From: an uncultured Erysipelotrichaceae bacterium
GTDB taxonomy: Bacteria > Bacillota_I > Bacilli_A > Erysipelotrichales > Erysipelotrichaceae
Reading direction: 5' to 3'
NCBI GenBank assembly: GCA_964369955.1
Contig: CAYJFQ010000006.1
Location: forward strand, 2,763-66,762
Length of the DNA stretch: 64,000 bases
Of the stretch, positions 14,421 to 49,196 are shown piece after piece; positions within the stretch are counted from its first letter, which is position 1, and each line of letters starts with the position of its first letter. The position numbers and the translations under genes were made by a program. Below the pieces are notes generated by a model that worked only from the letters and a program-made list of their open reading frames with translations, was not told where the DNA came from and ran no database searches.

Positions 14421-14438
14421 ATTTTATGTGGAGTGTAT

Positions 14439-16577: not shown

Positions 16578-16968
16578 ACTAGAAGCTGGGTTGGTACTCA
16601 TGGGTACTGAGATCAAATCAATTAGAAAAGGCAATTGTAATTTAAAAGGATCATATATCGATATTAAAGGACACGAAGCCTTTATTAATGACATGCATAT
16701 AGCAGAGTTTGAACAAGGTAATCGTTTCAACCATGAAATGAAAAGACCACGCAAATTATTGCTTCACAGAAAAGAAATTATTAAATTAGCTCAACAAGTT
16801 AAAATAAAAGGCTTCACTATTGTACCAACTAAGTTATATTTTTCTAGAGGTCGTGTTAAAATAGAGATAGCCCTTGCGAAAGGGAAAGAACTTCATGACA
16901 AACGCAACTCTTTGAAAGAAAAGGAAATGAAAAGAGAGATGGATAAAGCTATGAAGATCAGGTATTAA
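16519..16968 (+). CDS. smpB: SsrA-binding protein SmpB
   Basis: 149 aa. The IAVNRQASHEYFL N-terminus and RPRKLLLHRKEI segment are canonical SmpB. Confidence 0.95.
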   Translation: MEKIIAVNRQASHEYFLSDKLEAGLVLMGTEIKSIRKGNCNLKGSYIDIKGHEAFINDMHIAEFEQGNRFNHEMKRPRKLLLHRKEIIKLAQQVKIKGFTIVPTKLYFSRGRVKIEIALAKGKELHDKRNSLKEKEMKREMDKAMKIRY

Positions 16969-16969
16969 T

Positions 16970-17322
16970 GGGGGTGTAATGGATTTCGACAGGTAGTGAT
17001 TGGATTTTAAGTGCAGTGGTCTGGTAGACCTTAATACCGAAACAAAAAAATAAACGGAAACAATAGATTAAGTTTCGCTGCTTAATTACTCGACACAGAG
17101 TTAGTAGCTGCTAGTTAAAGTTTTAGTCTTTGGGCTTTAAACTAGTACCAGAAACAAAGAATAAGCAAGTATGAAGTTTGTGAATACTTGACGAAAAACA
17201 TACAAACAACTCATAAGTATTCTTGTCTATTAGTAACTTATGAGTACCATAATAGACTAAACTGTAGTACTTAAAATGGGGATCCTATTTGGACAGGGGT
17301 TCGACTCCCCTCACCTCCACCA
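16970..17322 (+). ncRNA. ssrA: tmRNA (SsrA)
   Basis: The 5' GGGGGTG pairs with the 3' CACCTCC-ACCA, giving a G3-U70 alanine identity pair. GGATTTCGACAGG is present near the 5' end and a T-arm GGGGTTCGACTCCCC near the 3' end. Length is 353 nt. The tag frame GGA AAC AAT AGA TTA AGT TTC GCT GCT TAA (17056-17085) encodes ...GNNRLSFAA. The exact resume codon is not certain. Confidence 0.9.
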
Positions 17323-31227: not shown

Positions 31228-32256
31228 TTATAAATCATTTGCAATATCTAAGATTAATTTTTCTGTTGTTTCCCATCCGATACAAGGGTCAGTAATAGAT
31301 TTGCCATAACAATATTCTTCTTTCTCAATATTATGAGTGCCATCAATCAAGTAACTTTCAATCATCAATCCCTTAACAAGAGTTTTGATTTCTTGATTTT
31401 GTTTTCTTGAGTGAAGAACATCCTTTGCGATTCTCACTTGTTGAGTGTGATCTTTATTGGCATTGGCGTGGCTTGTGTCAATAATTACTGCAGGATTTTG
31501 TAAATTATATTCTTTGTATAGTTGGTTAACTTTCATGATATCTTCATAATGATAATTAGGCCTATTGTTGCCATGACTATCTGTGAAACCTCGAAGAATC
31601 GCATGTGCATATGGGTTGCCAGTTGTTTTTACTTCCCATCCTCTATAAATAAATGTATGAGGACTTTGTGCTGCCTTGATAGAATTCATCATTATTTTAA
31701 ACCCGCCCTCTGTAGGGTTCTTCATCCCTACCGGCACATCTATACCACTTGAAGTAAGTCTGTGTTGTTGATTCTCTACCGAGCGAGCTCCTATTGCTGT
31801 ATAGCCTAGCAAATCAGAGATATAACGGTAGTTCTCAGGATATAACATTTCATCAGCGCAAGAGAAATTGAATTGAGTTAAGATGTCTCTATGAAGATTT
31901 CTAATGGCGATAATACCTCTTAACATATCTTCACTTTCCATAGGATTAGGTTGGTGTAACATCCCTTTATATCCTTGTCCTGTAGTTCTTGGTTTATTTG
32001 TATATACTCTAGGCACTATCAATATTTTATCTTTAACTTTTTGTTGAATTTTAGAAAGTCGTGACATGTATTCTAGTACTGACTCAACATTATCAGCTGA
32101 ACACGGACCAATAATTAATAGAAACTTATCTGATTTACCTGATATGATATCTTTCATTTCTTGATCCACTTGTTTTCTAATTGCTTGTTTTTCTGGGAAT
32201 ATAGGGTATTCCTCTTTAATGTCTCTTGGTATTGGTAATTTTCTGATAAATTCCAT
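31228..32256 (-). CDS. aroG: 3-deoxy-7-phosphoheptulonate (DAHP) synthase, class I-alpha (AroF/G/H type)
   Basis: 342 aa. IIGPCSADN, KPRTT, IGARSVENQQHR, IDTSHANA and GKSITDPCIGWE align with E. coli AroG-type enzymes. The isozyme and its feedback specificity are unknown. Confidence 0.9.
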   Translation of the reverse strand: MEFIRKLPIPRDIKEEYPIFPEKQAIRKQVDQEMKDIISGKSDKFLLIIGPCSADNVESVLEYMSRLSKIQQKVKDKILIVPRVYTNKPRTTGQGYKGMLHQPNPMESEDMLRGIIAIRNLHRDILTQFNFSCADEMLYPENYRYISDLLGYTAIGARSVENQQHRLTSSGIDVPVGMKNPTEGGFKIMMNSIKAAQSPHTFIYRGWEVKTTGNPYAHAILRGFTDSHGNNRPNYHYEDIMKVNQLYKEYNLQNPAVIIDTSHANANKDHTQQVRIAKDVLHSRKQNQEIKTLVKGLMIESYLIDGTHNIEKEEYCYGKSITDPCIGWETTEKLILDIANDL

Positions 32257-32257
32257 G

Positions 32258-33121
32258 CTAATTCTCGCTTTCTATTTTGTCAAATCGCTTTCTTCTTCTT
32301 GTTGAAGTAATCATCATTTCTTTGATTAGTTCAGCGTTATCCTTGGTTAGATAATCTTCCATTCTAATTAGTTGTGTTTTAAAATTACTAATTTGTGTAA
32401 GAAGATCTTCCTTGTTTAATAAGAATAATTCTGTCCACATTTCCTCATTTAATGAGGCAATTCTTGTCAAATCTCTAAATGAATCTCCCGTATAATCTTC
32501 CATATTTGGTTGATCGATGGAATTCATTAAACTAATTGCTATGACATGTGTTAATTGTGAGAGAAAGGCTATCATCTTATCATGTTTATCTGGTGTGATA
32601 ACTGAGATAGTCTTAAAGCCTAAGATTCTTCCTAATTGTTTACAAACACTAATCGCATGTTGGCTATTTTCTTCTGTTGGAACTACTAAGTAGTTAGCTC
32701 CTTTAAATATATTATGGTCACTATAAGTGATTCCTGAATACTCTCTACCAGCCATAGGGTGGGCAGAAATAAATTCAACACCTTCTGGTAGACTGCTATT
32801 TATTTCTTGAAGGATGGCTTTTTTAATGCCACTGACATCAGTAACGATAGTATTAGGGGTAATAAGGTGCCCATTTTCTTTAATCCATTTAACTAATGTT
32901 GTTGGGTATAAACCAAAGATTATTAAATCAGCTTCTTCGATTAATTGCTTATCAACTTCACTACTTCCTTTTTGAATAAAATTGTTCTCAAGGGCATAGT
33001 CTATTGCTTTGTGGTCATTATCGATGGCATTGACTAGATATTGTTTTTTTGTTAATGCTTGTGCGTAACTACCTCCTAACAGCCCCAGACCTACAATTAA
33101 GATATTAGTTTCAATTTTCAT
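32258..33121 (-). CDS. tyrA: Prephenate dehydrogenase
   Basis: 287 aa with an N-terminal Rossmann motif IVGLGLLGGS and the SAHPMAG motif. Confidence 0.85.
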   Translation of the reverse strand: MKIETNILIVGLGLLGGSYAQALTKKQYLVNAIDNDHKAIDYALENNFIQKGSSEVDKQLIEEADLIIFGLYPTTLVKWIKENGHLITPNTIVTDVSGIKKAILQEINSSLPEGVEFISAHPMAGREYSGITYSDHNIFKGANYLVVPTEENSQHAISVCKQLGRILGFKTISVITPDKHDKMIAFLSQLTHVIAISLMNSIDQPNMEDYTGDSFRDLTRIASLNEEMWTELFLLNKEDLLTQISNFKTQLIRMEDYLTKDNAELIKEMMITSTRRRKRFDKIESEN

Positions 33122-34316
33122 TTGTGACCTTCAATCCAAGGGTTTCCATTAATTCAAAGAAGTTAGGAAAACTTTTGTTTACTGCTTGAATATTACTAAT
33201 AATACCACCTGTCAAACTAAGCAAGATACTAAGACTCATTACCAAGCGATGATCATTGTGAGTATTAATTATTTCTTGTGGTTTTTTTATTTTTGTTTGG
33301 TGAACAATTATTTTATTCTCAAAGATTTCCACTTTGACTCCAAACTTAATCAACTCTTCAGCCATACAAGCACCACGATCACTCTCTTTAATCTTTAAAC
33401 GCTGAGTATTGATAAATGTAGCCCCGTTATTAACAGCTGCTACAACAAATAATATTGGCCCTAAATCAGGGCAATCAGCTAAATCCAAGATTGGATGACC
33501 ACTAGCTAGTAAAGGAAAATAATCTAAATAAACTTTATCACCCTGTAAAGAATCATTAGTCAACCCATCAACAACAACATCACCACCCAGATAATTAATC
33601 GCCTCGAAGAAAGCCCCGTTAGAATAATCTTTCTCCACAACTAACTCTCTTGAGGAATAAATCTGATTACCCTTAACTATTAAGTTATCACCATCCCAAT
33701 CAATCTTTACCCCAAAATCAGCTAAAGATTTAATCGTTAAGTTGATGTAAGATCTACTTTCAACTTTTGTAGTAAAACTAATAACACTATCCCCATCCAA
33801 AATCGGTAGAACAAAAAGTAGACCACTAATAAACTGACTACTAACATCACCTTTTAATGAGTATTTACCACTAGCAAGTTTACCCTTAACAGTTAATTCA
33901 TTATCTGTTTGTTTAAATTCAAAGTTATGAGTTTTAGCCAAATCTTGATAGATATCCATCGGTCTCTCTAATAAACGCTTAGCTCCAGTTAACTTATACT
34001 TTTGATTGTTTAATAAACAAAGAGGAACTAAGAATCTAATTGTACTTCCACTCTCATGACAATCTAGAGCTAAACTGCTTAAAGGATTATCCCTAAACCC
34101 TCTAACTTTTAACATATCACCATCTTTAGTAAAAGTGGCCCCAAGCTTCTCTAAACAATTAATAGTAGCTAAGATATCCATCGACTCTTGAATTCCAATC
34201 AAACCACTTTCACCATCAGAAAGGGCAGCGCAAATCAAGGCTCTATGAGCCATACTCTTGCTAGTAGGAGCGCTAACTTTACCAGCAAGTTTACTTATCG
34301 CAATTGAGATATCCAT
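33111..34316 (-). CDS. aroA: 3-phosphoshikimate 1-carboxyvinyltransferase (EPSP synthase)
   Basis: 401 aa. PTSKSMAHRALI, LERPM and HNDHRLVMS motifs are present. The protein is rather short for the family. Confidence 0.9.
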   Translation of the reverse strand: MDISIAISKLAGKVSAPTSKSMAHRALICAALSDGESGLIGIQESMDILATINCLEKLGATFTKDGDMLKVRGFRDNPLSSLALDCHESGSTIRFLVPLCLLNNQKYKLTGAKRLLERPMDIYQDLAKTHNFEFKQTDNELTVKGKLASGKYSLKGDVSSQFISGLLFVLPILDGDSVISFTTKVESRSYINLTIKSLADFGVKIDWDGDNLIVKGNQIYSSRELVVEKDYSNGAFFEAINYLGGDVVVDGLTNDSLQGDKVYLDYFPLLASGHPILDLADCPDLGPILFVVAAVNNGATFINTQRLKIKESDRGACMAEELIKFGVKVEIFENKIIVHQTKIKKPQEIINTHNDHRLVMSLSILLSLTGGIISNIQAVNKSFPNFFELMETLGLKVTNEN

Positions 34317-34756
34317 TAATTATCACCTAAGTAATCAACTAGTTTATCTAAAGCAATTACATAACCTTGTAACCCTTGCCCAACAACTGAACAAAGACAA
34401 GCATCTTTAATATAGTTAATCTTTCTAAACTCTTCACGATTATTAACATCACTAATATGAACTTCAATAGTCGGTAAGTTAACAGCTTTTAAAGCATCAT
34501 AAATTGCAACACTTGTATGAGTATAAGCAGCTGGGTTAATAATTAGACCATCATACTTTTCAAAATAGGCCTCTTGTATTTTATCGACAAGTGCTCCTTC
34601 ATGATTAGACTGATAAAACTCAACTTTTACATTCTTGAATACACTATGTTCATTAATAATTTTTAAAAGGGTTGAGTAATTGCTGTTACCATAGACTTCA
34701 ACTTCTCTAATTCCTAACATATTCAAGTTAGGACCATTAATCACTAATATTTTCAT
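34316..34756 (-). CDS. aroQ: Type II 3-dehydroquinate dehydratase
   Basis: 146 aa with INGPNLNMLGIRE and NPAAYTHTSVA motifs. Confidence 0.9.
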   Translation of the reverse strand: MKILVINGPNLNMLGIREVEVYGNSNYSTLLKIINEHSVFKNVKVEFYQSNHEGALVDKIQEAYFEKYDGLIINPAAYTHTSVAIYDALKAVNLPTIEVHISDVNNREEFRKINYIKDACLCSVVGQGLQGYVIALDKLVDYLGDN

Positions 34757-35979
34757 TTATAATCACGCTTAATTTCACTAACAATCGCTCTTGTAGTTTT
34801 ATCTCCATCAATAATTTTGTCAGCTGAATTCTTATATAATGGCAATCTTTCATTAAACCTTTCTTTCAACATTTGAACATTAGCAGTTAACGGGCGATCA
34901 AAAGCAGCTACTAAGTTCTCAAGACTACGATCAATAAAATAGAGACGCCCATTTCTTTTTAGAGCTGCTACATTAGAAGGATCAATAATAGTCCCGCCGC
35001 CTGTCGCAATAACTGCACCAGTAATTGCCGAAAGACGTTCAATAGTCGTAGCCTCAATTTTTCTAAACTCAACTTCACCAAAATAAACAATTATATCGGC
35101 AGGAGTCATTCCTTTTTCTTTCATTACTTCATCATCTAAATCAAAGAAAGGGCGCTTTAGTTTTTCAGCCAATGCCTTCCCAATCGTTGTCTTACCAGAA
35201 GTCGGCATACCAACTAAAATGATACTTTCTTTCTCTTTCATCATCTCATCATAAACTCTTTCGATTTCTTGATGACTAACTTTAATGTCCATAAATTGCT
35301 CTAAGGCATAAGCTGCTTGAGCTACTAACATGTATAAACCACCAATTGATTTAATTCCTATATTTTGAGCTTCAACAACAATATTGGTTCTTAATGGATT
35401 GTAGATTACATCAACCAAAGCTTCTAAACCTCTAAATCTATTAATATTGATAGGTCTTGTATAATGATTAGGATACATTCCACAAGGTGTTGTATTGATG
35501 ATAATGTCAACATCTTTGTGAGTGGTTAATAAGTCTAAATAACTAGGATCTTTTGAACGAGAGATAATTAAAGTCTCTTCTGCATGCAATTGTTTTGTAA
35601 CGGCTTTTGCCGTTTTACTTGTTCCACCGCTTCCTAAGATTGCGACTTTCTTTCCAGCGACTGAAACATTATTCTTTTCAAGTAAAGCTTTTAATCCCAA
35701 ATGGTCAGTATTATATCCATATAATTTACCATCACGATTAACAATAGTATTAACTGCTCCAATCTCTTCAGCCATTGGATCAACAACATCTAAGTACTGC
35801 ATTACCGTTTGTTTGTAAGGGATTGTAACATTTATACCTAGGAAATTTCGTTTAGTAAGAAAAGCTTCTAATTTTTCAGGTTTAACTTCGTGTAGTTTAT
35901 AATCAATATTTGTAAACTTTCCCAAAATTTCTTTTGAATAACTATGTTCTAATTTCCTTCCTATTAATCCATATTTCAT
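34753..35979 (-). CDS. aroE: Bifunctional shikimate dehydrogenase / shikimate kinase fusion
   Basis: 408 aa. Residues up to about 260 are AroE-like (LEHSYSKEI, ILGSGGTSKTA). The C-terminal ~140 aa are AroK-like, with P-loop GMPTSGKTTIGK and a GGG lid. Confidence 0.85.
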   Translation of the reverse strand: MKYGLIGRKLEHSYSKEILGKFTNIDYKLHEVKPEKLEAFLTKRNFLGINVTIPYKQTVMQYLDVVDPMAEEIGAVNTIVNRDGKLYGYNTDHLGLKALLEKNNVSVAGKKVAILGSGGTSKTAKAVTKQLHAEETLIISRSKDPSYLDLLTTHKDVDIIINTTPCGMYPNHYTRPININRFRGLEALVDVIYNPLRTNIVVEAQNIGIKSIGGLYMLVAQAAYALEQFMDIKVSHQEIERVYDEMMKEKESIILVGMPTSGKTTIGKALAEKLKRPFFDLDDEVMKEKGMTPADIIVYFGEVEFRKIEATTIERLSAITGAVIATGGGTIIDPSNVAALKRNGRLYFIDRSLENLVAAFDRPLTANVQMLKERFNERLPLYKNSADKIIDGDKTTRAIVSEIKRDYK

Positions 35980-37082
35980 TTTCCTGCCTCCATTAAATAA
36001 TCATTGCCATACTTTGTAATTAATAAATCCGCCAAAACAATGGCAATAATACTATCAAGGACAATTCTTCCGCGATGAGCAATGCAAGGATCATGCCTTC
36101 CTACTAATTGATGAGTAACATTTGTCATCTCTAAGTAGTTGATTGTATCTTGACACTTGAATATTGAAGGAGTTGGCTTCATTGCTGTATTAATAATAAT
36201 AGGCATTCCGTTACTAATTCCACCATTTATTCCACCACTATTATTAGTAGTTGTTATCACTTTACCATCGATTAAGCGTATTTGATCATTAGCTTGACTA
36301 CCCTTAATAAGCGCAATCTCAAAACCTGCCCCAAACTCAACTCCTTTAACACCAGGGATACTAAAGATAGCACCAGCTAACATCCCCTCTAAAGTTCCAA
36401 ACCAAGGCTCGCCAACACCGGCAGGTAAACCATAAACAACAGATTCTAAAGTACCACCTACACTGTCTCCTTGTTCTCTAGCATAAAGAATAACTTCTTG
36501 ATATAGTTCGCTAATTTTTGGATCTAAAACTGGAAATTCTTGGACACTTAAGGCTTTAATATCTTCCAAGTAATCACCAAACTCACGATCATAGATCCCG
36601 CCACAACTTTTAAGATGAGTACCAATCATTATATTTTTAGTTTTTAAAGCACTAATTAAGATTGCTCCAGCTGCCACTAAAGCAGCAGTAACTCTTCCAC
36701 TAAAATGACCGCCACCACGATAATCTTGGAAACCGTGGTACTTAACATTAGCCGTATAATCCGAATGACTAGGACGAGCAATTCCGCTAGATTTACTATA
36801 GTCACTGGAATTTTGTTTATTATTGTCGATTGTAATTGTTATTGGAGTACCTGTTGAAAATCCATTAAATACACCACTATGAATTACAAAATTATCTTCT
36901 TCAACTCTGCTTGTTGATAGTTTATTGCTAGGCCTTCTTAAGTTAAGTTGGTGTCTTATAAAATCTAAGTCAATTTTAACTCCACTAGAAATTCCATCAA
37001 TAACTACACCCACAGAAGTTCCATGACTCTCACCAAATAAAGTAACTATTAAATTATTACCAATTGTATTTCTATTCATCAC
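35976..37082 (-). CDS. aroC: Chorismate synthase
   Basis: 368 aa with FGESHG, RPSHSD and GRHDPC motifs. Confidence 0.95.
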   Translation of the reverse strand: MMNRNTIGNNLIVTLFGESHGTSVGVVIDGISSGVKIDLDFIRHQLNLRRPSNKLSTSRVEEDNFVIHSGVFNGFSTGTPITITIDNNKQNSSDYSKSSGIARPSHSDYTANVKYHGFQDYRGGGHFSGRVTAALVAAGAILISALKTKNIMIGTHLKSCGGIYDREFGDYLEDIKALSVQEFPVLDPKISELYQEVILYAREQGDSVGGTLESVVYGLPAGVGEPWFGTLEGMLAGAIFSIPGVKGVEFGAGFEIALIKGSQANDQIRLIDGKVITTTNNSGGINGGISNGMPIIINTAMKPTPSIFKCQDTINYLEMTNVTHQLVGRHDPCIAHRGRIVLDSIIAIVLADLLITKYGNDYLMEAGK

Positions 37083-38079
37083 TAACTCCTTTAATTAACT
37101 CTTCTAATTCAGTTAACTTAATTTTAATAAAATCATACTTACCAAGTTCAGACACTTTGACAATAGTGATAGAATCACCACTAGCTTTTTTATCATGTGT
37201 AGCCGCTTGATAGATAGTTTGATAATCAAAATCTTTATAACTAGTTGGGATTCCTAATCTTTGAAGGATCTTAATTAAACGTGGTTTTAATGAAGTATTA
37301 ATCATTGGAATCATCCCTAATCCTACACACTCACCATGGTATAACTTACCAAGATTAGTGCTTTCAATTCCGTGTCCAATCGTATGCCCGAAGTTTAAAA
37401 CTTTACGAACATTTTGTTCCTTCTCATCAACTACAACAATATCTCTTTTAATTTTAATAGATTCAATAATAATCTTTTGAATATCTAAATGTAATTTCTC
37501 AAACTCTTCAAATAACAAACTATCACAAGTGGTGGCCATCTTTAAGCCTTCCACTAAACCATTATTAATCTGCCTTTTATCTAAAGTATTTAAAACCATA
37601 AAATCTATTAAAACACCCTTAGGTTGATAGAAAGCTCCAACTATATTCTTGTAAGATTGATAATCAATGGCTGTTTTTCCACCAATTGAAGAATCAATTT
37701 GAGACAAAACAGTAGTAGGAACATTATAGAAATCAATTCCACGCATATAAGTAGCACTCACAAAACCAGCTAAATCTCCAACAACTCCACCGCCAACTGC
37801 CACAACACAATCACTCCTTGTGAAGTTACTTTCAATTAACTTTTCAATAATTAATTGATAAGTCTCAATATTTTTATTCTCTTCACCTTCATCAATAGTC
37901 ACAATTATAGAGTTCAATGATTTATCCTTAACCATTTGACTATATATAGCAGGTACACCAGTGTCAGTAACAATACACACTTTACGCTGTAAATTAAAAT
38001 AATGATCAATATTTTTAAGAATATTTTCCCCAAGATGAATAGGGTAACTGTTCTCTGTTAGATTTACTTCAATCTTCAT
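37072..38079 (-). CDS. aroB: 3-dehydroquinate synthase
   Basis: Track ORF 37072..38124. The ATG at 38079 (MKIEVNL) lies 1 nt after the pheA stop. GGGVVGDLAGF and NFGHTIGH motifs are present. Confidence 0.9.
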   Translation of the reverse strand: MKIEVNLTENSYPIHLGENILKNIDHYFNLQRKVCIVTDTGVPAIYSQMVKDKSLNSIIVTIDEGEENKNIETYQLIIEKLIESNFTRSDCVVAVGGGVVGDLAGFVSATYMRGIDFYNVPTTVLSQIDSSIGGKTAIDYQSYKNIVGAFYQPKGVLIDFMVLNTLDKRQINNGLVEGLKMATTCDSLLFEEFEKLHLDIQKIIIESIKIKRDIVVVDEKEQNVRKVLNFGHTIGHGIESTNLGKLYHGECVGLGMIPMINTSLKPRLIKILQRLGIPTSYKDFDYQTIYQAATHDKKASGDSITIVKVSELGKYDFIKIKLTELEELIKGVSDE

Positions 38080-38080
38080 A

Positions 38081-39184
38081 TTATTCACCACTTTCCAAAA
38101 TCGGTTTATTAATATACGAACCAATCACCTTTACACTTAAACACTCTTTATCAAGTTCTTTTAACATCTTAGCGCCTTTTTTACCATTGATGTTACCAAT
38201 GCCTTCGATAATAAAATAATATTCCCAATTATTATCTTTTGTAGGGCGACTTTTTAAGGCTTGAAGATTAAAACCGTTATTCCCAATAATTGAAACAGCT
38301 TTACTTAATGAGCCAGCTTTATTTTTGACGATAAAGAACATAAAAAAACGATCATCATTTTTATTAAGTTGGTTACTAGTTCTAGAGAAGACTGCAAATC
38401 TTGTAGTGTTAGTACTACTTTGATTTATGTTTCTTTCTAACACTTCTAAATTATAAAGCTTCGCAGTTTCACTACTAGCGATTACCGCGGCATCTTTAGC
38501 TAGACTTTCAGACAATTGTTTACCTGCAACTGCAGTGTTGATTGCTTCTATTTCTTGCCAATCTTTATCTTTTAAATAATCACGACATTGAGCTAAAGCT
38601 TGAGGATGGCTAATTACTTTTTTTAGATTTTTGTAGCTTACACCCTTATTAACTAGTAGACAATGGTTAATTGAGAAGCTATAGATGCCATTAATAAATA
38701 ATGAACCCTCAAAAGCTAAATCAATTACATTAGTCACATCGCCATTAGTACTATTTTCAATTGGCAAGACAACACAATCACAATCTCCATCCACAACACT
38801 TTGATAAGCACTGTGAAAGTTAGGGTAATTTAAATGTTGGCCATCTGGAAATATTCTACTACTTGCGATTTGTGCAAATGAACCTTCGACCCCAGAATAG
38901 CTAATTTTCATACCCTCTAAAATATGGTGTTGGTAGCTTTTTGAAAGCTCCATCTTATTTTTTAAGAAGTTTACATAATAACTTCTAAGTGTGACATCGT
39001 CGATATATTGAGAGTTTCTTTCAATAATCTCTAATTCCCTTTGACTATCAAAAACTGGTATTCCATTTTCTTGTTTATATTGAGCTACATTTCTAACTTC
39101 CTTCATGCGAGCTACAAATAAATCAGCCATTTCTTTGTCGATATTATTAATATTTATTCTTGAGTTTTCTAATTTGTTTTTCAT
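38081..39184 (-). CDS. pheA: Bifunctional chorismate mutase / prephenate dehydratase (P-protein)
   Basis: Track ORF 38081..39232. The ATG at 39184 (MKNKLEN) lies 8 nt after SD AAGGGG. AroQ-type CM N-terminus, PDT core (TRF motif) and a C-terminal ACT-like domain. Confidence 0.85.
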   Translation of the reverse strand: MKNKLENSRININNIDKEMADLFVARMKEVRNVAQYKQENGIPVFDSQRELEIIERNSQYIDDVTLRSYYVNFLKNKMELSKSYQHHILEGMKISYSGVEGSFAQIASSRIFPDGQHLNYPNFHSAYQSVVDGDCDCVVLPIENSTNGDVTNVIDLAFEGSLFINGIYSFSINHCLLVNKGVSYKNLKKVISHPQALAQCRDYLKDKDWQEIEAINTAVAGKQLSESLAKDAAVIASSETAKLYNLEVLERNINQSSTNTTRFAVFSRTSNQLNKNDDRFFMFFIVKNKAGSLSKAVSIIGNNGFNLQALKSRPTKDNNWEYYFIIEGIGNINGKKGAKMLKELDKECLSVKVIGSYINKPILESGE

Positions 39185-39200
39185 TTCATACCCCTTATTT

Positions 39201-39246
39201 AAAAAAATAAAGCCTGTTATCAAAATAGTCATCGATAACAGGCTTT
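39201..39246 (-). terminator. Intrinsic terminator (attenuator) immediately upstream of pheA
   Basis: On the minus strand, AAAGCCTGTTATC pairs perfectly with GATAACAGGCTTT and is followed by ATTTTTTT. It ends about 17 nt before the pheA start. Confidence 0.75.
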
Positions 39247-39302
39247 CATCACATTATTTACAAGATATTACATACACACAGCAGCCATTATAACTGTTGG
39301 GT

Positions 39303-39374
39303 TTAGACAATCTTCTTACAAATATTAAGTAAGCCCATATCACAGTAATAATAGAATTTTTCTAGGTTGTTCAT
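39303..39374 (-). CDS. Candidate leader peptide of the aromatic operon (MNNLEKFYYYCDMGLLNICKKIV)
   Basis: 23-codon ORF with SD-like GGAAGGA 8 nt upstream. It contains the consecutive codons TTC TAT TAT TAC (F-Y-Y-Y) and sits between the promoter and the terminator. It is too short for the ORF track. Confidence 0.4.
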   Translation of the reverse strand: MNNLEKFYYYCDMGLLNICKKIV

Positions 39375-39406
39375 ATAAGCTTTCCTTCCATTTTTTAAAC
39401 ATTGAT

Positions 39407-39435
39407 ATTATACATTTTAGTAACCCAATAGTCAA
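39407..39435 (-). promoter_or_regulatory. Near-consensus sigma-A promoter of the aromatic operon
   Basis: On the minus strand: TTGACT (39435-39430), a 17-nt spacer and an extended -10 TGTATAAT (39414-39407). Confidence 0.6.
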
Positions 39436-39475
39436 TAAACTAAAAATAAGTTAAAATAAAAAAAAGTAGGTGCTT

Positions 39476-40429
39476 ATGAAGGAAAAAATATTCAACAGAA
39501 AAGGATTAATATTTAAATCATTAATAGGGTTAATGATTATCATTATCCTTTTTAATCCTCAATGGATTCCATTTTTAAATGATGAAGTTGTTAAAGATAT
39601 ACAAATAGCTTTAAAAAAGAATTTCTCAATCTTAAGAGGCAGTGATCAATCACTTAGCGCCGCACTTCCAATGGCTTTCTCATTATTGTCAATGGTTATT
39701 GGAGTGATGATTGCGACATGGTTTGTTAAATACCTGATCAGTAAGATTAAAGTTAAAGATAAACATAGTCTAACTATCGTTGTATTAATTGATAGTTTTG
39801 TTCGTTATGTATCAGTTATTATTATCGGAGTATGGGGCTTAACCATTTTAGGTGTTAACATCATAGGAATATTTGCGAGTTTAGGAATCATGGGGCTAGT
39901 AATTGGTTTTGGAGCTCAAAGTTTAATCCAGGATATTATTACAGGTATCTTTATTATTTTAGAGGGTCAATATGTAATTGATGATATTATTGAGATTGAT
40001 AATTTTAGAGGAGTTGTTAAAAAAATTGGAGTCAGAACTACAACTTTTGAGGACGCTTCTGGAAATTTAAAGATTATAAATAATTCAGATATTCGCAACT
40101 TAATAAATCGTTCAAAAGACGAATCTTTAGTTTATTGTGCAGTAGGGGTTAGTTATGAAGATGATTTCTTAGTTATTGAAAAGAAAATCCAAGAGAAGGT
40201 ATTACCTTATATTATTAAGGAGGGACTTGTTTATGGTATTAAGAATATTGAATACCAAGGAGTGGACTCATTAGGCGATAGTTCAATCAATTTGAAGTTT
40301 ACAGGCTTTGTCAAAGAGTCAAATTACTTTGTTGGTTATCGTCAACTAAATCGTTTAATTTTAATAGCTTTCAGTGAAAATAAGATCTCAATTCCATATC
40401 CACAATTAGATGTCCACAGTAAAGATTAG
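39476..40429 (+). CDS. Small-conductance mechanosensitive channel (MscS family)
   Basis: Track ORF 39470 (GTG); ATG at 39476 after AGGTG. GFGAQSLIQDIITGIFIILEGQY is the MscS pore-helix/beta-domain signature. Confidence 0.8.
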   Translation: MKEKIFNRKGLIFKSLIGLMIIIILFNPQWIPFLNDEVVKDIQIALKKNFSILRGSDQSLSAALPMAFSLLSMVIGVMIATWFVKYLISKIKVKDKHSLTIVVLIDSFVRYVSVIIIGVWGLTILGVNIIGIFASLGIMGLVIGFGAQSLIQDIITGIFIILEGQYVIDDIIEIDNFRGVVKKIGVRTTTFEDASGNLKIINNSDIRNLINRSKDESLVYCAVGVSYEDDFLVIEKKIQEKVLPYIIKEGLVYGIKNIEYQGVDSLGDSSINLKFTGFVKESNYFVGYRQLNRLILIAFSENKISIPYPQLDVHSKD

Positions 40430-43188: not shown

Positions 43189-44694
43189 ATGTCAGAAATA
43201 ACAAAAATAGTTGAGGATACAGGACTTACATATTATCAGCAATTATTAGCCCTTGCGAAAGTGGCAGAAAATAGTGACACAACAATTGTCAACAGCAATA
43301 AATTTGTAAAAGCTAAAGAGGAAAAGAGATTGTGTGATTTAAATGAAGGAGCGCTCCCTTATCGTCCACGTTACATTATTCCTAATTATCAAATCTTAAT
43401 GGATAAGGGTTCTAAATTTTTACAGTTAGCTCCACCTAAAGATATTTGGGAAGCTACATCTGCTTTGATGATCATGTATCATCATGTTCCATCTATTACT
43501 TCTTTCCCTGTTTACTTAGGAAACTTAGATACATTACTTGAGAGATTTGATGTTGATGAGAAAGAAACTAGAAAAGCTTTAACTTTATTCTTAAATCATA
43601 TCGACAAAACTTTAACTGATTCATTCGTCCATGCGAATATTGGTCCAAAAGATACGCGCATTGGTCGTATCATTCTGGAACTAACAGAAGAAATGCAGTT
43701 GGCTATTCCGAATATTACTTTAAAGTATGATCAAGATCTTACTAGTGATGAGTTTGCGAAGTTAGCTGCTGACTGCATGTTAAGGACTGCAAAGCCAAGT
43801 TTTGCCAACTACAAGATGTATACACATGATCATGGAGATTTTGCGATCGCTTCTTGTTACAATGGGTTTAGAATTGGTGGAGGAGGTTACACTCTTCCAA
43901 GGATGCGTTTATCTAATCAAACATCAGATGCGACTAGTGTTGAAGATTTTATGGATCGTGTTCTGCCTTATTATGTTAACTTACAGTTAGAATACATGGA
44001 TAAGCGTATTGTGTATATGGTAGAAAAATCAGCTTTCTTTAAGAGTAATTTCTTAGTTACTGAAGGATTCTTAAACCAAAAAGATTTTATTGGAATGTTT
44101 GGCCTAGTTGGTTTAGCTGAGTGTTGCAACAATTTATTGGGTATTACTGATAAAGCTCAAGGTTTCGGCCATAATAAATCAGCTGATGATTTAGGTGTTA
44201 AAATAATTGAGAGAATTGAAGAGTTAGTAGCAAAACACAAAGCTCCTTATAGTGAGAATAATGATGACCGTTATTACCTGCATGCGCAAGTAGGTTTAGA
44301 TACTGATGGAACCGATTCAGCTCCTGGTTGTCGTATCCCTATTGGTTTTGAACCTGACTTTGTCAACCAATTAAAACAATCGGCTAAATATCATAAGTAT
44401 TTTACAACAGGTATTGGAGATGTCTTTAAGTTTGACGATACTTGGTTTAATAATTTAGATGCTTTACTTGATGTAATCAAGGGTGCCTTTAATAATGGTA
44501 TTAGATATCTTTCTGGATATAATGCAGATTGCGATGTAATCAGAGTTACAGGCTATCTAGTTAAGAAGAGTGAAGTTGCGAAATTAGATGCTGGAGAAGC
44601 TGTCCTAAATCAAGTAACAACTTTTGGTAGGGGTGCACGTGATGGAGCTAAATCTTTTGATCGTACGGTAAATCATGGAAGCTCTAGTAAATAA
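43189..44694 (+). CDS. yjjI: Short glycyl-radical enzyme, YjjI family (DUF3029-like), function unknown
   Basis: 501 aa with SD AGGAGG. The C-terminal radical motif is IRVTGYLV (Gly codon GGC at 44551-44553) and a candidate Cys loop is SAPGCRIPIG. It is about 500 aa rather than about 800 aa, and a YjjW-type activase is coupled directly downstream. Confidence 0.65.
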   Translation: MSEITKIVEDTGLTYYQQLLALAKVAENSDTTIVNSNKFVKAKEEKRLCDLNEGALPYRPRYIIPNYQILMDKGSKFLQLAPPKDIWEATSALMIMYHHVPSITSFPVYLGNLDTLLERFDVDEKETRKALTLFLNHIDKTLTDSFVHANIGPKDTRIGRIILELTEEMQLAIPNITLKYDQDLTSDEFAKLAADCMLRTAKPSFANYKMYTHDHGDFAIASCYNGFRIGGGGYTLPRMRLSNQTSDATSVEDFMDRVLPYYVNLQLEYMDKRIVYMVEKSAFFKSNFLVTEGFLNQKDFIGMFGLVGLAECCNNLLGITDKAQGFGHNKSADDLGVKIIERIEELVAKHKAPYSENNDDRYYLHAQVGLDTDGTDSAPGCRIPIGFEPDFVNQLKQSAKYHKYFTTGIGDVFKFDDTWFNNLDALLDVIKGAFNNGIRYLSGYNADCDVIRVTGYLVKKSEVAKLDAGEAVLNQVTTFGRGARDGAKSFDRTVNHGSSSK

Positions 44695-45511
44695 AATAAT
44701 TGAATTTTCAAATGTGGATGGACCGGGCAATCGCCTATCCATCTTTTTTCAAGGATGTCCTTTTAATTGTTTGTACTGTCATAATCCAGAAACAATTAAT
44801 CGCTGTATTAGTTGTGGAGATTGTTTGAAAGTTTGTCCAACTAATTCTTTAAAAATAATTGATGGCAAAATGACTTATAATAGTTTAACTTGCGTTAATT
44901 GCGATAAGTGTATTATTGCATGTGCGCATAATAGTAGTCCAAAAGTAACTAACTATGAAGTTTCACAATTAATCGAAATAATCAAAGATAATAAATTATT
45001 TATTCGCGGAATTACTGTAAGTGGTGGAGAATGCATGGAATACCCAGAGTTTCTACTAGAATTATTTAAGGAAGCGAAAAAATTAGGACTATCTTGTTTG
45101 ATTGATTCTAATGGTGCTTATGACTTTTCTAAGCACCAAGAATTAGTAATGTTGTCAGATGGAGTAATGCTGGATGTTAAGGCTGGAGATTCAAAGTTTC
45201 ATCAATTATTGACAGGGTGTGATAATCAAACAGTCTTTAATAATCTAAAGTATTTATTAGAAGTTAATCGTCTATTTGAAGTAAGAACAGTTTTGTTACC
45301 AAACTTTGACCAAGAGAACCTAATAACCATTAAAAAAGTAGTAAAAGTAATTAATGATCATTGTCAATACAAACTAATTAAATATCGCGGATATGGCGTA
45401 AGAGGGATTGGAGTTGAAGAATTTGGCTCTAAAATTTTAGATGAAAAACTGTACAAAAAATATCTTGATTATTGTCGCCAGTTAGGACAAACTAAAATCA
45501 TTGAAATTTAA
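44675..45511 (+). CDS. yjjW: Glycyl-radical enzyme activating protein (radical SAM), YjjW-like
   Basis: 278 aa. Radical-SAM CPFNCLYC motif plus two ferredoxin-like motifs (CISCGDCLKVCP and CVNCDKCIIAC). Overlaps yjjI by 20 nt. Confidence 0.8.
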   Translation: MEALVNKIIEFSNVDGPGNRLSIFFQGCPFNCLYCHNPETINRCISCGDCLKVCPTNSLKIIDGKMTYNSLTCVNCDKCIIACAHNSSPKVTNYEVSQLIEIIKDNKLFIRGITVSGGECMEYPEFLLELFKEAKKLGLSCLIDSNGAYDFSKHQELVMLSDGVMLDVKAGDSKFHQLLTGCDNQTVFNNLKYLLEVNRLFEVRTVLLPNFDQENLITIKKVVKVINDHCQYKLIKYRGYGVRGIGVEEFGSKILDEKLYKKYLDYCRQLGQTKIIEI

Positions 45512-47669: not shown

Positions 47670-49196
47670 ATGACATATGCAATTGAAATGCTTAACATAA
47701 CTAAAGATTTTCCGGGTATCCGTGCTAATGATGATGTTACTTTGATGGTTAAAGAACAATCGATTCATGCGCTACTAGGAGAAAATGGCGCTGGTAAGTC
47801 AACTTTAATGTCTATTCTTTTTGGTTTATATCAACCTACTAAAGGGAAGATTAAAGTAAAAGGAAAAGAGGTTTTGATAAACAATCCAAATATTGCTAAT
47901 GATTTAGGAATAGGGATGGTTCATCAACATTTTAAATTAGTTGATAGTTTTACAGTCACTGAGAATATTATATTAGGCAATGAACCTAAAACTGCTTTTG
48001 GTACCATTGATATCAAGGGTGCAGCTAAGAAGGTTAAAGAAATATCAGAAAGATACGGTTTAAATGTTGACCCTAATGCTAAGATTAGTGATATTAGTGT
48101 CGGTATGCAACAAAGAGTTGAAATTTTAAAAATGTTATATCGCAATTCAGATATATTAATTTTTGATGAACCAACAGCAGTATTAACCCCTCAAGAGATT
48201 CATGAGTTAATGAAGATCATGAAAAATATGATTAGTGAGGGCAAAACAATTTTACTGATCACTCATAAGTTAAATGAAATTAAGGAAGTAGCTGACTATT
48301 GTACAGTTCTTCGAAAAGGTAAGGGTATTGGCACAGTTGAAGTAAAAGATACTAGTGAAAAAGAGATGGCTGAAATGATGGTGGGGCGTCAAATTAACTT
48401 CAATATAGAAAAAGCCGATATTACTCCTGGCGAAGTGGTGCTTAAGGTTGATAATTTAAATGTTAAAGATTCTCAAGGATTAATGGCGGTTAAGAATTTA
48501 TCTCTTGAGGTTAGAGCTGGTGAAATCTTAGGGATTGCCGGTATTGATGGTAATGGACAGACTGAACTTGTTTATGCCTTGACTGGGCTAAGACATTGTG
48601 AGAGCGGCCATATTCACCTAAATGGAAACAACATTACTAATTATAAAGTTAAAAAACGTTTTGAAGCAGGGATGGCTCACATTCCTGAAGATCGTCATAA
48701 ACATGGGTTAGTTTTAGATTTTCCACTTGAGTATAATTATATTCTACATTGTTATAATGACCAACCATTTAGTGTATCTAGCATCTTGCAACCAACTGTA
48801 ATAAGTGATTATGCAGATAAACTAATTGAACAGTTTGATGTCCGTAGTGGTCAGGGCAAGGATTCTATTGTTCGCACAATGTCTGGTGGAAATCAACAGA
48901 AAGCAATTATTGCTAGAGAAATTGATCGCTCTGCAGATTTACTAGTTGTTGTTCAACCTACTAGAGGATTAGATGTAGGAGCTATTGAATATATCCATGG
49001 TCGCATAGTAGCTGAAAGAGATAAAGGCAAAGCGGTTTTGTTAGTATCTTTAGAATTGGATGAGGTAATGCAGTTATCTGATCGTATTGCAGTTATTCAT
49101 AATGGGGAAATTACAGGTCTTCTTGATAGTAAAGATGCTAATGAGAATGAGATTGGACTAATGATGTCTGGTTCGTTAAAGAAGGTAGAGGTGTAG
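47670..49196 (+). CDS. ABC transporter ATP-binding protein with duplicated ATPase domains (nucleoside/sugar type)
   Basis: 508 aa. Walker A GENGAGKST and signature-like VGMQQRVEIL in the first half. The second half is degenerate, with SGGNQQK. Confidence 0.9.
   Translation: MTYAIEMLNITKDFPGIRANDDVTLMVKEQSIHALLGENGAGKSTLMSILFGLYQPTKGKIKVKGKEVLINNPNIANDLGIGMVHQHFKLVDSFTVTENIILGNEPKTAFGTIDIKGAAKKVKEISERYGLNVDPNAKISDISVGMQQRVEILKMLYRNSDILIFDEPTAVLTPQEIHELMKIMKNMISEGKTILLITHKLNEIKEVADYCTVLRKGKGIGTVEVKDTSEKEMAEMMVGRQINFNIEKADITPGEVVLKVDNLNVKDSQGLMAVKNLSLEVRAGEILGIAGIDGNGQTELVYALTGLRHCESGHIHLNGNNITNYKVKKRFEAGMAHIPEDRHKHGLVLDFPLEYNYILHCYNDQPFSVSSILQPTVISDYADKLIEQFDVRSGQGKDSIVRTMSGGNQQKAIIAREIDRSADLLVVVQPTRGLDVGAIEYIHGRIVAERDKGKAVLLVSLELDEVMQLSDRIAVIHNGEITGLLDSKDANENEIGLMMSGSLKKVEV

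Follow-up and report, generated by a model that had tools for sequence, protein, structure and literature searches.

A probable Phe/Tyr leader-peptide attenuator ahead of a shikimate and pheA/tyrA operon in an uncultured Erysipelotrichaceae bacterium

The DNA analysed here (the window, a stretch of 64,000 nucleotides of contig CAYJFQ010000006.1 from an uncultured Erysipelotrichaceae bacterium) likely harbours, at positions 39185-39435, a ribosome-mediated transcription attenuator that would sense charged tRNA-Phe and/or tRNA-Tyr and control an eight-gene shikimate and pheA/tyrA operon. Attenuation rather than T-box control, as the original prediction proposed, is the best-supported reading: no T-box was matched, the predicted antiterminator lies 3' of the Phe/Tyr (F/Y) codons, and leaders of homologous operons in Clostridia follow the same helix logic.

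In Firmicutes, the regulation of aromatic amino-acid synthesis is usually credited to T-boxes, TRAP or protein repressors. The mechanism proposed here is that of the textbook trp/phe attenuator and, thus, nothing categorically new; the new part is the lineage and the operon, for which such control has not yet been catalogued and for which the window holds a probable Phe/Tyr attenuator. The whole eight-gene aromatic pathway appears to hang on one leader peptide with both Phe and Tyr codons.

The leader region, its terminator and the operon

The operon, delimited by Pfam scans and the ORF map (Table 1), has pheA and tyrA and, according to the Pfam scans, no trp genes, as originally described, with the correction that it also ends with aroF. 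The products of its branch points are exactly Phe and Tyr, which match the codons of the leader peptide.

Table 1. Coordinates of the features of the leader and of the operon behind it (positions in the window)
Feature	Position	Strand	Description
Sigma-70-type promoter	39407-39435	-	-35 TTGACT 39435-39430, 17-nt spacer, -10 TATAAT 39412-39407
Shine-Dalgarno (SD) of leader ORF	39383-39389	-	GGAAGGA, 8-nt gap to ATG at 39374
Leader ORF	39303-39374	-	23 codons and TAA stop, peptide MNNLEKFYYYCDMGLLNICKKIV
Region 1	39371-39386	-	AGGAAAGCUUAUAUGA; 3' part of SD and leader AUG; pairs with region 2 when no ribosome lies between (predicted)
Regulatory codons	39345-39356	-	TTC TAT TAT TAC (Phe-Tyr-Tyr-Tyr), codons 7-10, proposed ribosome stall site
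Region 2	39326-39342	-	UGAUAUGGGCUUACUUA; codons C-D-M-G-L-L; common strand for region 1 or region 3 (predicted)
P2 hairpin	39255-39324	-	11-bp outer stem UAUUUGUAAGA / UCUUGUAAAUA and inner stems (predicted)
Region 3	39233-39251	-	UGAUGAAAGCCUGUUAUCG; antiterminator 3' strand, 16 bp with region 2 (predicted)
Intrinsic terminator (regions 3:4)	39201-39246	-	Stem 39246-39232 / 39223-39209, 8-nt loop, then A and U7 39208-39201
Regulated operon	31228-39184	-	pheA-aroB-aroC-aroE/aroK fusion-aroQ-aroA-tyrA-aroF, eight genes
pheA, first gene	39184-38081	-	Domains CM_2, PDT and ACT
aroQ	within operon	-	Type II dehydroquinase
aroF, eighth and last gene	32256-31228	-	DAHP synthase (Pfam scan)

The promoter put forward in the original prediction was recovered with a score of 11 out of 12 as the top promoter-like site within 38500-40000. 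Its supposed extended -10 element did not withstand inspection, since the TG abuts TATAAT directly and so falls outside the TGnTATAAT register, and the promoter scan reports no TG. From the promoter sequence we infer a transcription start near 39400, which would give a leader of about 216 nt, in agreement with the 215 nt or so first estimated. The small ORF is present with the SD and spacing described for it, and its Phe-Tyr-Tyr-Tyr codons lie where they had been read, ahead of an operon with pheA and tyrA. When both strands of the 64-kb window (128 kb) were surveyed for small ORFs with an SD, an ATG and at least four consecutive F/Y codons, exactly one was obtained, namely this leader ORF, and the find exceeds chance: in 215 nt the expected number of runs with at least four F/Y codons is 0.044. 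The regulatory codons number just four, a single Phe among them. Folding of the whole leader gave z = -3.55.

The perfect 13-bp terminator hairpin and its U-tract were confirmed, the stem being extendable to 15 bp and the tract containing seven U. Its fold has an energy of -20.6 kcal/mol (z = -9.2), equalled by 0 of 200 shuffles, and no other terminator-like hairpin in the noncoding parts of the window is as strong. The distance to pheA, first given as about 17 nt, holds for the end of the U-tract, 16 nt upstream of the ATG at 39184, and not for the end of the stem, 24 nt upstream. The longest mechanical ORF for pheA begins at 39232, a position inside the terminator loop, and was rejected as the real start. 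No minus-strand promoter-like site was found between the terminator and pheA, so that the entire eight-gene operon must be transcribed through the terminator.

Alternative helices and the position of the ribosome

In the folding model the layout of the leader is the classical 1:2 / 2:3 / 3:4 arrangement. The onset of region 2 is only 3 nt past the last Tyr codon. The 1:2 helix (14 bp, 39386-39371 with 39342-39327) belongs to the minimum free energy (MFE) structure of the free leader, where it partly occludes the SD and the AUG; as an isolated hairpin it has -10.8 kcal/mol and z = -1.9, marginally better than shuffles. Region 3 and the terminator 5' arm, which is 15 nt long, have 14 nt in common. 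The P2 hairpin encloses the leader stop codon and is nested inside the antiterminator; alone it reaches -12.1 kcal/mol and is not significant (z = -1.2).

The effect of the ribosome was modelled by restricting the fold to RNA downstream of the stalled ribosome; a footprint-masked fold in which the upstream RNA was left free was dropped because of sterically implausible pairings across the ribosome. With the ribosome on F, Y1 or Y2 and prior to the terminator 3' arm, the MFE structure of the downstream RNA is the 2:3 antiterminator, with a stabilisation of -9.8 kcal/mol that compares with a shuffle mean of -3.6 and was reached by 0.75% of 400 shuffles; the z-score of the antiterminator complex is -2.2. 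Taken singly, the non-terminator helices (1:2, antiterminator and P2) only modestly beat shuffles. The terminator arm (15 nt) had 12 of its nucleotides sequestered when the A site was set at or before F (or up to Y1 with an additional 9 nt of protection). Placing the A site on Y1-Y3 left 4-8 of them sequestered, and 2 remained so from about one or two codons beyond Y3 until near the stop codon. Thus, in the folding of downstream RNA the antiterminator is lost when the ribosome is shifted 2-3 codons past the F/Y stall, and another pairing of the terminator arm, a weak one (-6 to -9 kcal/mol), arises when the ribosome is near the stop codon. The mutually exclusive terminator and antiterminator structures that the original prediction envisaged, with a choice dependent on the position of the ribosome at the FYYY codons, were therefore found in silico as 2:3 versus 3:4.

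The strand first suspected of acting as antiterminator, CAACAG...GGCUG (39283-39298), had to be rejected in that role, as it forms the apical stem of P2 in every fold; its pairing with the terminator arm is the weak one just mentioned and occurs only in an artificial state, with P2 melted by a ribosome at the stop codon. The main antiterminator is located directly 3' of the F/Y codons, as the classical model requires, is far better than that candidate and shares its 5' strand with the 1:2 helix.

According to the proposed mechanism, transcription would begin at the strong promoter and the leader RNA would carry the 23-codon ORF, which is predicted to be translatable. With ample Phe and Tyr, the ribosome would pass the F/Y codons and clear region 2, upon which the 1:2 helix would form because both of its strands have already been made; region 3 would then be free, the terminator would fold and transcription would halt about 16 nt before pheA. 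If Phe-tRNA or Tyr-tRNA were scarce, the ribosome would stall while its A site holds the codon F, Y1 or Y2. Regions 1 and 2 are separated by a 28-nt loop, which the stalled ribosome would fill, keeping the 1:2 helix from closing; the exposed region 2 would capture the newly made region 3 around the nested P2, the terminator would not form and read-through into pheA...aroF would follow. Without translation both 1:2 and 3:4 would form and, as a consequence, the default state would be off. A ribosome at the stop codon would leave region 2, 20 nt upstream, uncovered, which means that the off state would rely on the re-forming of 1:2 or on trailing ribosomes.

Thermodynamically the terminator, with a contribution of about -20 kcal/mol, is far stronger than the antiterminator (-9.8 kcal/mol). 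The energy balance of the E. coli trp attenuator is comparable, and there the antiterminator prevails kinetically, not thermodynamically. In B. subtilis, RNA polymerase has been reported to be faster than the ribosomes; by analogy, the timing of the attenuator would be tight if RNA polymerase outruns ribosomes in this lineage too. If the proposed mechanism is true, ribosomes must reach the stall site, about 20 nt in, before RNA polymerase advances about 140 nt more, and the leader would constitute a natural test of transcription-translation coordination outside Proteobacteria. Leaders of this kind may thus serve as compact systems for asking whether ribosomes keep pace with the RNA polymerase of Firmicutes.

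Related leaders in Clostridia and rival explanations

A search of 5.8 billion proteins returned no close ortholog of PheA, the best match having 58% identity, and scans of a genome collection and of metagenomes with PheA yielded relatives at 56% identity or less. The best match of the RNase R encoded in the window is 60% identical; named homologs of this protein are few and belong for the most part to the order Erysipelotrichales.

Twelve distinct homologous aro operons from metagenome loci of Clostridia/Oscillospirales carry F/Y-rich, W-free leader ORFs (for example MFVKSYFRFYYYMNADCLYTCEA and MFNKKFYFYYFNQGCPFTEICR), and all 12 have a terminator and a position-dependent antiterminator of the same type. 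The operon order, (aminotransferase-)pheA-aroB-aroC-aroE/K-aroQ..., is like that of the window. The leader ORFs of the family have 12-25 codons, with an F/Y cluster that is often [KR]-F-Y-Y and without W; as in the window, region 2 comes right after the cluster and is predicted to pair with the SD region and with the terminator 5' arm, and an inner hairpin surrounds the stop codon. The window leader differs in that it lacks the conserved strings of the family (GGUGGACAG, GGACUGUC and ACAGCCCGC) and has four aromatic codons against 5-9.

The pairing of the Clostridia antiterminator was specified by hand and then tested by pair counts: 76% of it is paired, in comparison with 27-37% in slid registers, and compensatory changes occur in 8 of the 15 pairs, with a score that was reached by 0 of 500 shuffles. 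RNAalifold, run on the family alignment, recovered only the base of the terminator and a spurious small stem. The 1:2 helix is 73% paired in the family, with zero compensatory changes. A covariance model built here (R1) gave scores of 88-139 bits for all loci of the family and of 110 bits for an unseen locus (L030); the window leader obtained 5.5 bits in an alignment that skips the structured core, and is not a match. The window leader therefore works, in the folding model, like the family and has no demonstrable sequence membership in it, its homology being unproven.

At least 12 distinct Clostridia loci thus have the same solution and represent a covarying family that is absent from the RNA databases searched, and no description of a Phe/Tyr leader in Clostridia or Erysipelotrichales was found in the openly accessible literature. 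It can be hypothesized, with arguments for and against evenly balanced in our view, that dual Phe/Tyr leader-peptide attenuators, which neither Rfam nor the searchable literature contains, are a common control of complete shikimate, Phe and Tyr operons in gut and rumen Clostridia, and that the version in the window, from an Erysipelotrichales-like lineage of Bacillota without a sequenced close relative, has either diverged deeply or evolved independently. Were the Clostridia family annotated, aromatic amino-acid prototrophy and its control could be predicted better for bacteria of the gut and rumen.

Several other readings of the leader have to be weighed. As background, T-boxes are the commonest amino-acid sensors before such Firmicutes genes, and a leader of about 216 nt falls within their size range; a highly divergent T-box that reads uncharged tRNA-Phe or tRNA-Tyr is, even so, essentially refuted. 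The absence of a T-box claimed in the original prediction was borne out by every search performed: Rfam at gathering thresholds gave neither a T-box nor any other cis-regulatory family over the whole window, and in the 421-nt region 39100-39520, searched at E <= 10, no T-box (RF00230) was found and all matches were far below threshold, such as PyrG_leader, whose 19.8 bits fall short of the gathering score of 65, a chance match that spans the terminator hairpin only. The 14-nt T-box core AGGGUGGNACCGCG does not occur in the window, even when 3 mismatches are tolerated. In addition, the antiterminator as predicted consists simply of a long-range helix, and no UGGN bulge was seen in it. The original prediction had singled out a known riboswitch or a divergent T-box as findings that would speak against it, and the covariance search matched neither of them. 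Furthermore, Rfam, run at gathering thresholds over the window and three related loci and at E <= 10 over the leader, returned just tmRNA, tRNA and chance matches to the terminator hairpin.

It seems unlikely, on the whole, that the leader is a terminator switched by an RNA-binding protein, a small-molecule riboswitch or an sRNA acting on 2:3, with an FYYY ORF that is fortuitous or untranslated. The terminator and its alternative helices hold irrespective of the sensor, F/Y codons are common in this AT-rich genome (31% GC, with 26 runs of at least four in the window, whatever their ORF status) and the SD and AUG are partly hidden by the 1:2 helix; however, the ORF has a good SD, a proper spacing and an ATG, is the sole such F/Y-run ORF in the window, and places its aromatic codons exactly where a stalled ribosome would part region 1 from region 2 and keep the latter exposed. 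Besides, related operons repeatedly carry F/Y-rich ORFs at the same site, with F/Y kept while the codons vary, no riboswitch or protein-binding leader of Rfam was matched, and no TRAP-type array of repeated triplets was seen on reading the leader sequence. The balance between the terminator and the weaker antiterminator could also suit an element without regulatory function. It might be a small transcription unit of its own, either an independent transcript or a micropeptide gene, that ends at the terminator, or else the terminator might be constitutively leaky and simply set the operon level. We regard this as quite improbable: no promoter-like site was found in the 24 nt between the terminator and pheA and the operon must be read through the terminator, the strands shared by 1:2 / 2:3 / 3:4 and the match between codons and products are left unexplained, and the same arrangement recurs in related operons.

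Comparison with known attenuators

The original prediction considered that a Phe/Tyr leader-peptide attenuator would be unusual for Firmicutes, a claim that is only partly true. Leader-peptide attenuators of his operons occur in the Bacillus cereus group, Peptostreptococcaceae and Erysipelotrichales (PMC9413887; also PMC2965389), and a Leu-rich attenuator peptide precedes ilv-leu in S. aureus (PMC5794164). These leaders evidence classical leader-peptide attenuation operating in Firmicutes, and differ from that of the window in the amino acids, the operons and their unrelated sequences. Closer in pathway is the uORFC-13-1 motif of Acholeplasma (PMC8632094, Breaker lab), which comprises a promoter, an RBS, a start codon and a U-run specifying one Phe or more, lies next to an intrinsic terminator, is described exclusively upstream of aroF and was proposed as a Phe-sensing uORF attenuator in aromatic amino-acid biosynthesis. 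Compared by description only, it shares with the window a low-GC lineage and an aromatic-pathway uORF with a terminator; in the window, pheA is the first gene and aroF the last, and Tyr codons dominate. No Rfam family corresponding to uORFC-13-1 surfaced in the leader search at E <= 10.

In Corynebacterium glutamicum, the leader peptide aroR, upstream of aroF, has a Phe-Tyr-Phe motif and controls the shikimate pathway by ribosome stalling, with a reported response to Phe and not to Tyr limitation (Neshat et al. 2014, summarised in PMC11802643). By description, both systems have a mixed Phe/Tyr leader peptide over shikimate-pathway genes; aroR belongs to an Actinobacteria host and aroF comes first there, in contrast to pheA in the window. 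Leaders such as the one described here would be suited for asking whether a mixed F/Y leader integrates two amino-acid signals; for aroR, Phe limitation alone was effective (PMC11802643).

The closest counterparts in layout are pheL-pheA and trpL of E. coli, which like the window leader have a promoter, a short ORF with codons for the end product, the 1:2 / 2:3 / 3:4 helices and an intrinsic terminator, which in the case of pheL precedes the chorismate mutase-prephenate dehydratase gene; in both, as predicted for the window, the terminator is the stronger of the two competing helices, and the antiterminator has to win kinetically. There is no sequence or covariance-model similarity to Phe_leader or Trp_leader, and none of Phe_leader, Trp_leader, His_leader, Leu_leader, Thr_leader and the leu/phe leader appeared in the Rfam search at E <= 10. 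The codons of the window are a mixture of one F and three Y and not a Phe run as in pheL. Unlike in pheL and trpL, region 1 consists of the SD/AUG region and not of the regulatory codons, the stop codon comes 20 nt past region 2, within a separate inner hairpin, the host is a low-GC member of the Bacillota, and the unit under control would be the whole shikimate, Phe and Tyr pathway.

The leader and its operon

The minus-strand leader at 39185-39435 quite likely represents a ribosome-mediated Phe/Tyr attenuator, a reading already put forward in the original prediction and now backed by modelling of the RNA structure and, independently, by analogous leaders in other organisms. Sequence reading found the promoter, Shine-Dalgarno sequence (SD), short ORF, terminator and pheA start, all on the minus strand as predicted. 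The terminator cannot belong to the upstream gene, because this MscS-like neighbor (Pfam) is transcribed divergently, and the promoter scan detected no promoter-like site between terminator and pheA. Based on Pfam assignments the operon includes pheA (CM_2, PDT and ACT domains), aroB, aroC, an aroE/aroK fusion, a type II dehydroquinase, aroA, tyrA and a DAHP synthase; it spans the whole common pathway and both the Phe and the Tyr branch, without trp genes. The predicted occurrence of pheA and tyrA without trp genes was thus borne out, while the DAHP synthase had been overlooked.

Features of the leader and of homologous operons (L numbers, metagenome loci from Clostridia/Oscillospirales, for which positions refer to the leader region as a whole)
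Feature	Position	Strand	Remarks
Promoter TTGACT-17-TATAAT	39435-39407	minus	11/12; top promoter-like site within 38500-40000
SD GGAAGGA	39389-39383	minus	8 nt ahead of leader ATG
Region 1, AGGAAAGCUUAUAUGA	39386-39371	minus	3' part of SD plus leader AUG
Leader ORF, MNNLEKFYYYCDMGLLNICKKIV	ATG 39374, stop 39305-39303	minus	23 codons; sequence reading 39000-39700
Region 2, UGAUAUGGGCUUACUUA	39342-39326	minus	begins 3 nt past last Tyr codon
Hairpin P2	39324-39255	minus	includes leader stop codon
Region 3, UGAUGAAAGCCUGUUAUCG	39251-39233	minus	covers 14/15 nt of terminator 5' arm
Terminator	stem 39246-39232 / 39223-39209, then A + U7	minus	-20.6 kcal/mol, z = -9.2
pheA start ATG	39184	minus	AGGGG SD 6 nt upstream
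L001 leader peptide MMNVAVVRFYYCRQSGFSAFAEMR	2571-2757
L003 leader peptide MFFISYYFYYFKKGCPFSHACCVR	2602-2781
L004 leader peptide MFNKKFYFYYFNQGCPFTEICR	386-552
L005 leader peptide MFMNYFYFYFFKKDCLCSYASK	2602-2776
L012 leader peptide MFFSGYRFYRCSTDCLNSFKAIGK	2114-2289
L013 leader peptide MFFSFYFRYFIN	2123-2283
L017 leader peptide MFVKSYFRFYYYMNADCLYTCEA	2104-2274
L019 leader peptide MFVNNSFYFYFTMADCMCTETN	1620-1778
L021 leader peptide MFKSYFINFFYFIITDCLYPIKASI	1628-1782
L024 leader peptide MFVKSYFRFYYFNNTDCLYTIKA	1630-1797
L027 leader peptide MFYYIDYRFYFYNTDCLCPCEA	1619-1782
L030 leader peptide MFGYIAYRFYYYGTDCLCAHKA	1632-1790
L002 leaderless upstream region	~2730-2815
L006 leaderless upstream region	~2730-2805
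L008 leaderless upstream region	~1240-1308

The pheA start is favoured by Pfam domain positions and homolog alignments. An upstream extension of the pheA ORF to an ATG in the terminator loop (39185-39232, minus) and a 62-aa plus-strand ORF (39105-39293) that runs opposite to the terminator and to the start of pheA are mechanical artefacts. A six-codon mini-ORF (39371-39391, minus; AUG GAA GGA AAG CUU AUA UGA, MEGKLI) lies in a frame different from that of the leader ORF, whose ATG its stop overlaps as AUGA; since it is preceded only by an A-run, without an SD, it is probably untranslated.

A chance origin of the aromatic codons, of which the leader has four only (FYYY, codons 7-10), has to be weighed, because at 31% GC F and Y codons are common in random frames: the window contains 26 runs of at least four F/Y codons on both strands, and therefore 0.044 would be expected per 215-nt leader. 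The leader ORF is the only ORF in the window that combines an ATG, an SD, a length of 8-45 codons and such a run, and the complete leader fold (z = -3.55) was equalled by 0 of 200 shuffles. As regards a known sensor, Rfam at gathering thresholds retrieved from the window a tmRNA and one tRNA and nothing else, and at E <= 10 the interval 39100-39520 gave sub-threshold matches only, aligning to the terminator hairpin. The conserved T-box sequence was not matched with up to three mismatches allowed, so that on both searches the earlier observation that there is no T-box holds.

Elsewhere in the window, the tmRNA (16970-17322; 139.5 bits) adjoins the genes for RNase R (14433-16577) and SmpB (16519-16968) on the plus strand, all of them ribosome-rescue components. 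Terminator-like hairpins of lower stability (-10 to -11 kcal/mol) closely precede RNase R (14361, plus) and the gene at 47670-49196 (47620, plus); they may terminate the genes before them or serve as additional attenuators. Within the plus-strand segment 41187-45511, the gene for a YjjI-like glycyl-radical enzyme (Pfam E = 8e-202), with an adjoining ORF (44675-45511), comes after genes for a nicotinate phosphoribosyltransferase and a nicotinamidase-like protein that has an isochorismatase domain.

Predicted competing structures and ribosome position

In the folding model the leader adopts mutually exclusive terminator and antiterminator structures, the choice depending on ribosome position. 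In the free RNA region 2 is predicted to form a 14-bp helix with region 1, which would block the antiterminator; alternatively, it pairs over 16 bp with region 3, with P2 nested within this antiterminator helix. Regions 1 and 3 have similar sequences, which fits their sharing a pairing partner. The antiterminator suggested originally, CAACAG...GGCUG, was rejected as the main one, as it forms the tip of P2 and region 2 is the better candidate.

In the ribosome-position model the transcript stopped short of the terminator 3' arm, and folding was confined to nucleotides lying beyond +9 or +12 nt 3' of the A site. As long as the A site had not passed F (or Y1, if +9 nt were protected), the MFE structure was the antiterminator, sequestering 12 of the 15 arm nt; this dropped to 4-8 nt across Y1-Y3, and from about the codon after Y3 the antiterminator was gone (2 nt sequestered). 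The antiterminator contributes -9.8 kcal/mol, compared with a mean of -3.6 for dinucleotide shuffles of the upstream segment, 0.75% of which match it. At about -20 kcal/mol the terminator is the more stable of the two, and the antiterminator can prevail only if it forms earlier, as is also the case for E. coli trp. For the off state the 1:2 helix would have to re-form, since region 2 is left uncovered by a ribosome that has reached the stop codon. Taken individually, the non-terminator helices are just modestly above shuffles (1:2, z = -1.9; antiterminator complex, z = -2.2; P2, z = -1.2), and what carries the argument is how they are arranged rather than how stable any one of them is.

A ribosome on the leader stop codon melts P2 in the model, and the freed ACAGUUAUAAUGGCUG, the element originally proposed, can then pair weakly with the terminator 5' arm (39276-39302 with 39233-39250, minus; -6 to -9 kcal/mol). 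This pairing runs counter to the expected logic and is probably irrelevant, or could raise basal read-through.

Leaders of homologous operons and known systems

PheA matches reached at most 56% identity in genome and metagenome scans, and in a search of 5.8 billion proteins the best identities were 58% (PheA) and 60% (RNase R), with no relative above 60% for any protein checked. The closest PheA relatives (53-58%) belong to Clostridia/Oscillospirales metagenome assemblies; the few named RNase R relatives (~47-50%) are mostly from Erysipelotrichaceae (Breznakia, Longicatena), so that the host probably belongs to an Erysipelotrichales-like lineage of Bacillota. The difference could reflect horizontal acquisition of the aro operon (31228-39184) or no more than a lack of sampling in the host lineage. 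The Clostridia/Oscillospirales operons keep the gene order of the window operon, usually with an aminotransferase gene first.

Twelve distinct loci carry a short F/Y-rich ORF without W ahead of the first gene, with conserved strings in the SD region (GGUGGACAG), past the aromatic run (GGACUGUC) and at the terminator arm (ACAG(C/U)CCGC). In a ribosome-position scan of 11 of these leaders (all but L030, which was detected with the covariance model) the antiterminator formed while the A site had not yet moved past the aromatic run, and collapsed 1-3 codons later. When the same 11 were aligned, the antiterminator helix was 76% paired versus 27-37% with a slid register, showed compensatory changes in 8 of 15 pairs, and its covariation was reached by 0 of 500 shuffles; the terminator base was 93% paired (3 compensated pairs) and the helix between SD region and region 2 73% paired but invariant, and so without a covariation signal for or against it. 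Rfam, run on three related loci, gave no match. Based on this modelling, these form a conserved, apparently uncatalogued family of putative F/Y-rich leader-peptide attenuators ahead of (aminotransferase-)pheA-aro operons. Three homologous operons (L002, L006 and L008) have neither leader ORF nor terminator, and show promoter-like sequence some tens of nt ahead of the first gene; therefore the attenuator was gained or lost within the operon family.

The window leader has gene context and helix logic in common with this family, and shares a [KR]-F-Y-Y(-Y) motif with some members. When these 11 leaders were made into a covariance model, the family loci all scored 88-139 bits and the unseen L030 110 bits; the window leader reached 5.5 bits, in an alignment that skipped the structured core, and no other part of the window gave a significant score. 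A family relationship is not demonstrable by sequence, and the window leader may be deeply diverged within an AT-rich genome or of independent origin.

Searches of the open-access literature turned up no Phe/Tyr leader ahead of pheA/aro operons in Clostridia or Erysipelotrichales and, as far as could be told, the window instance and the Clostridia family are uncatalogued examples of a mechanism already known. Gamma-proteobacteria offer a classical case of leader-peptide attenuation at pheA (PMC3082878), and in C. glutamicum aroF is controlled by aroR, a mixed Phe-Tyr-Phe leader that senses limitation of Phe but not of Tyr (PMC11802643). For low-GC lineages, published predictions place His leaders in the B. 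cereus group, Peptostreptococcaceae and Erysipelotrichales (PMC9413887, PMC2965389), a Leu-rich attenuator peptide has been reported for branched-chain amino-acid genes in S. aureus (PMC5794164), and in Acholeplasma the uORFC-13-1 motif, a uORF that has Phe codons and is accompanied by a terminator, sits upstream of aroF (PMC8632094).
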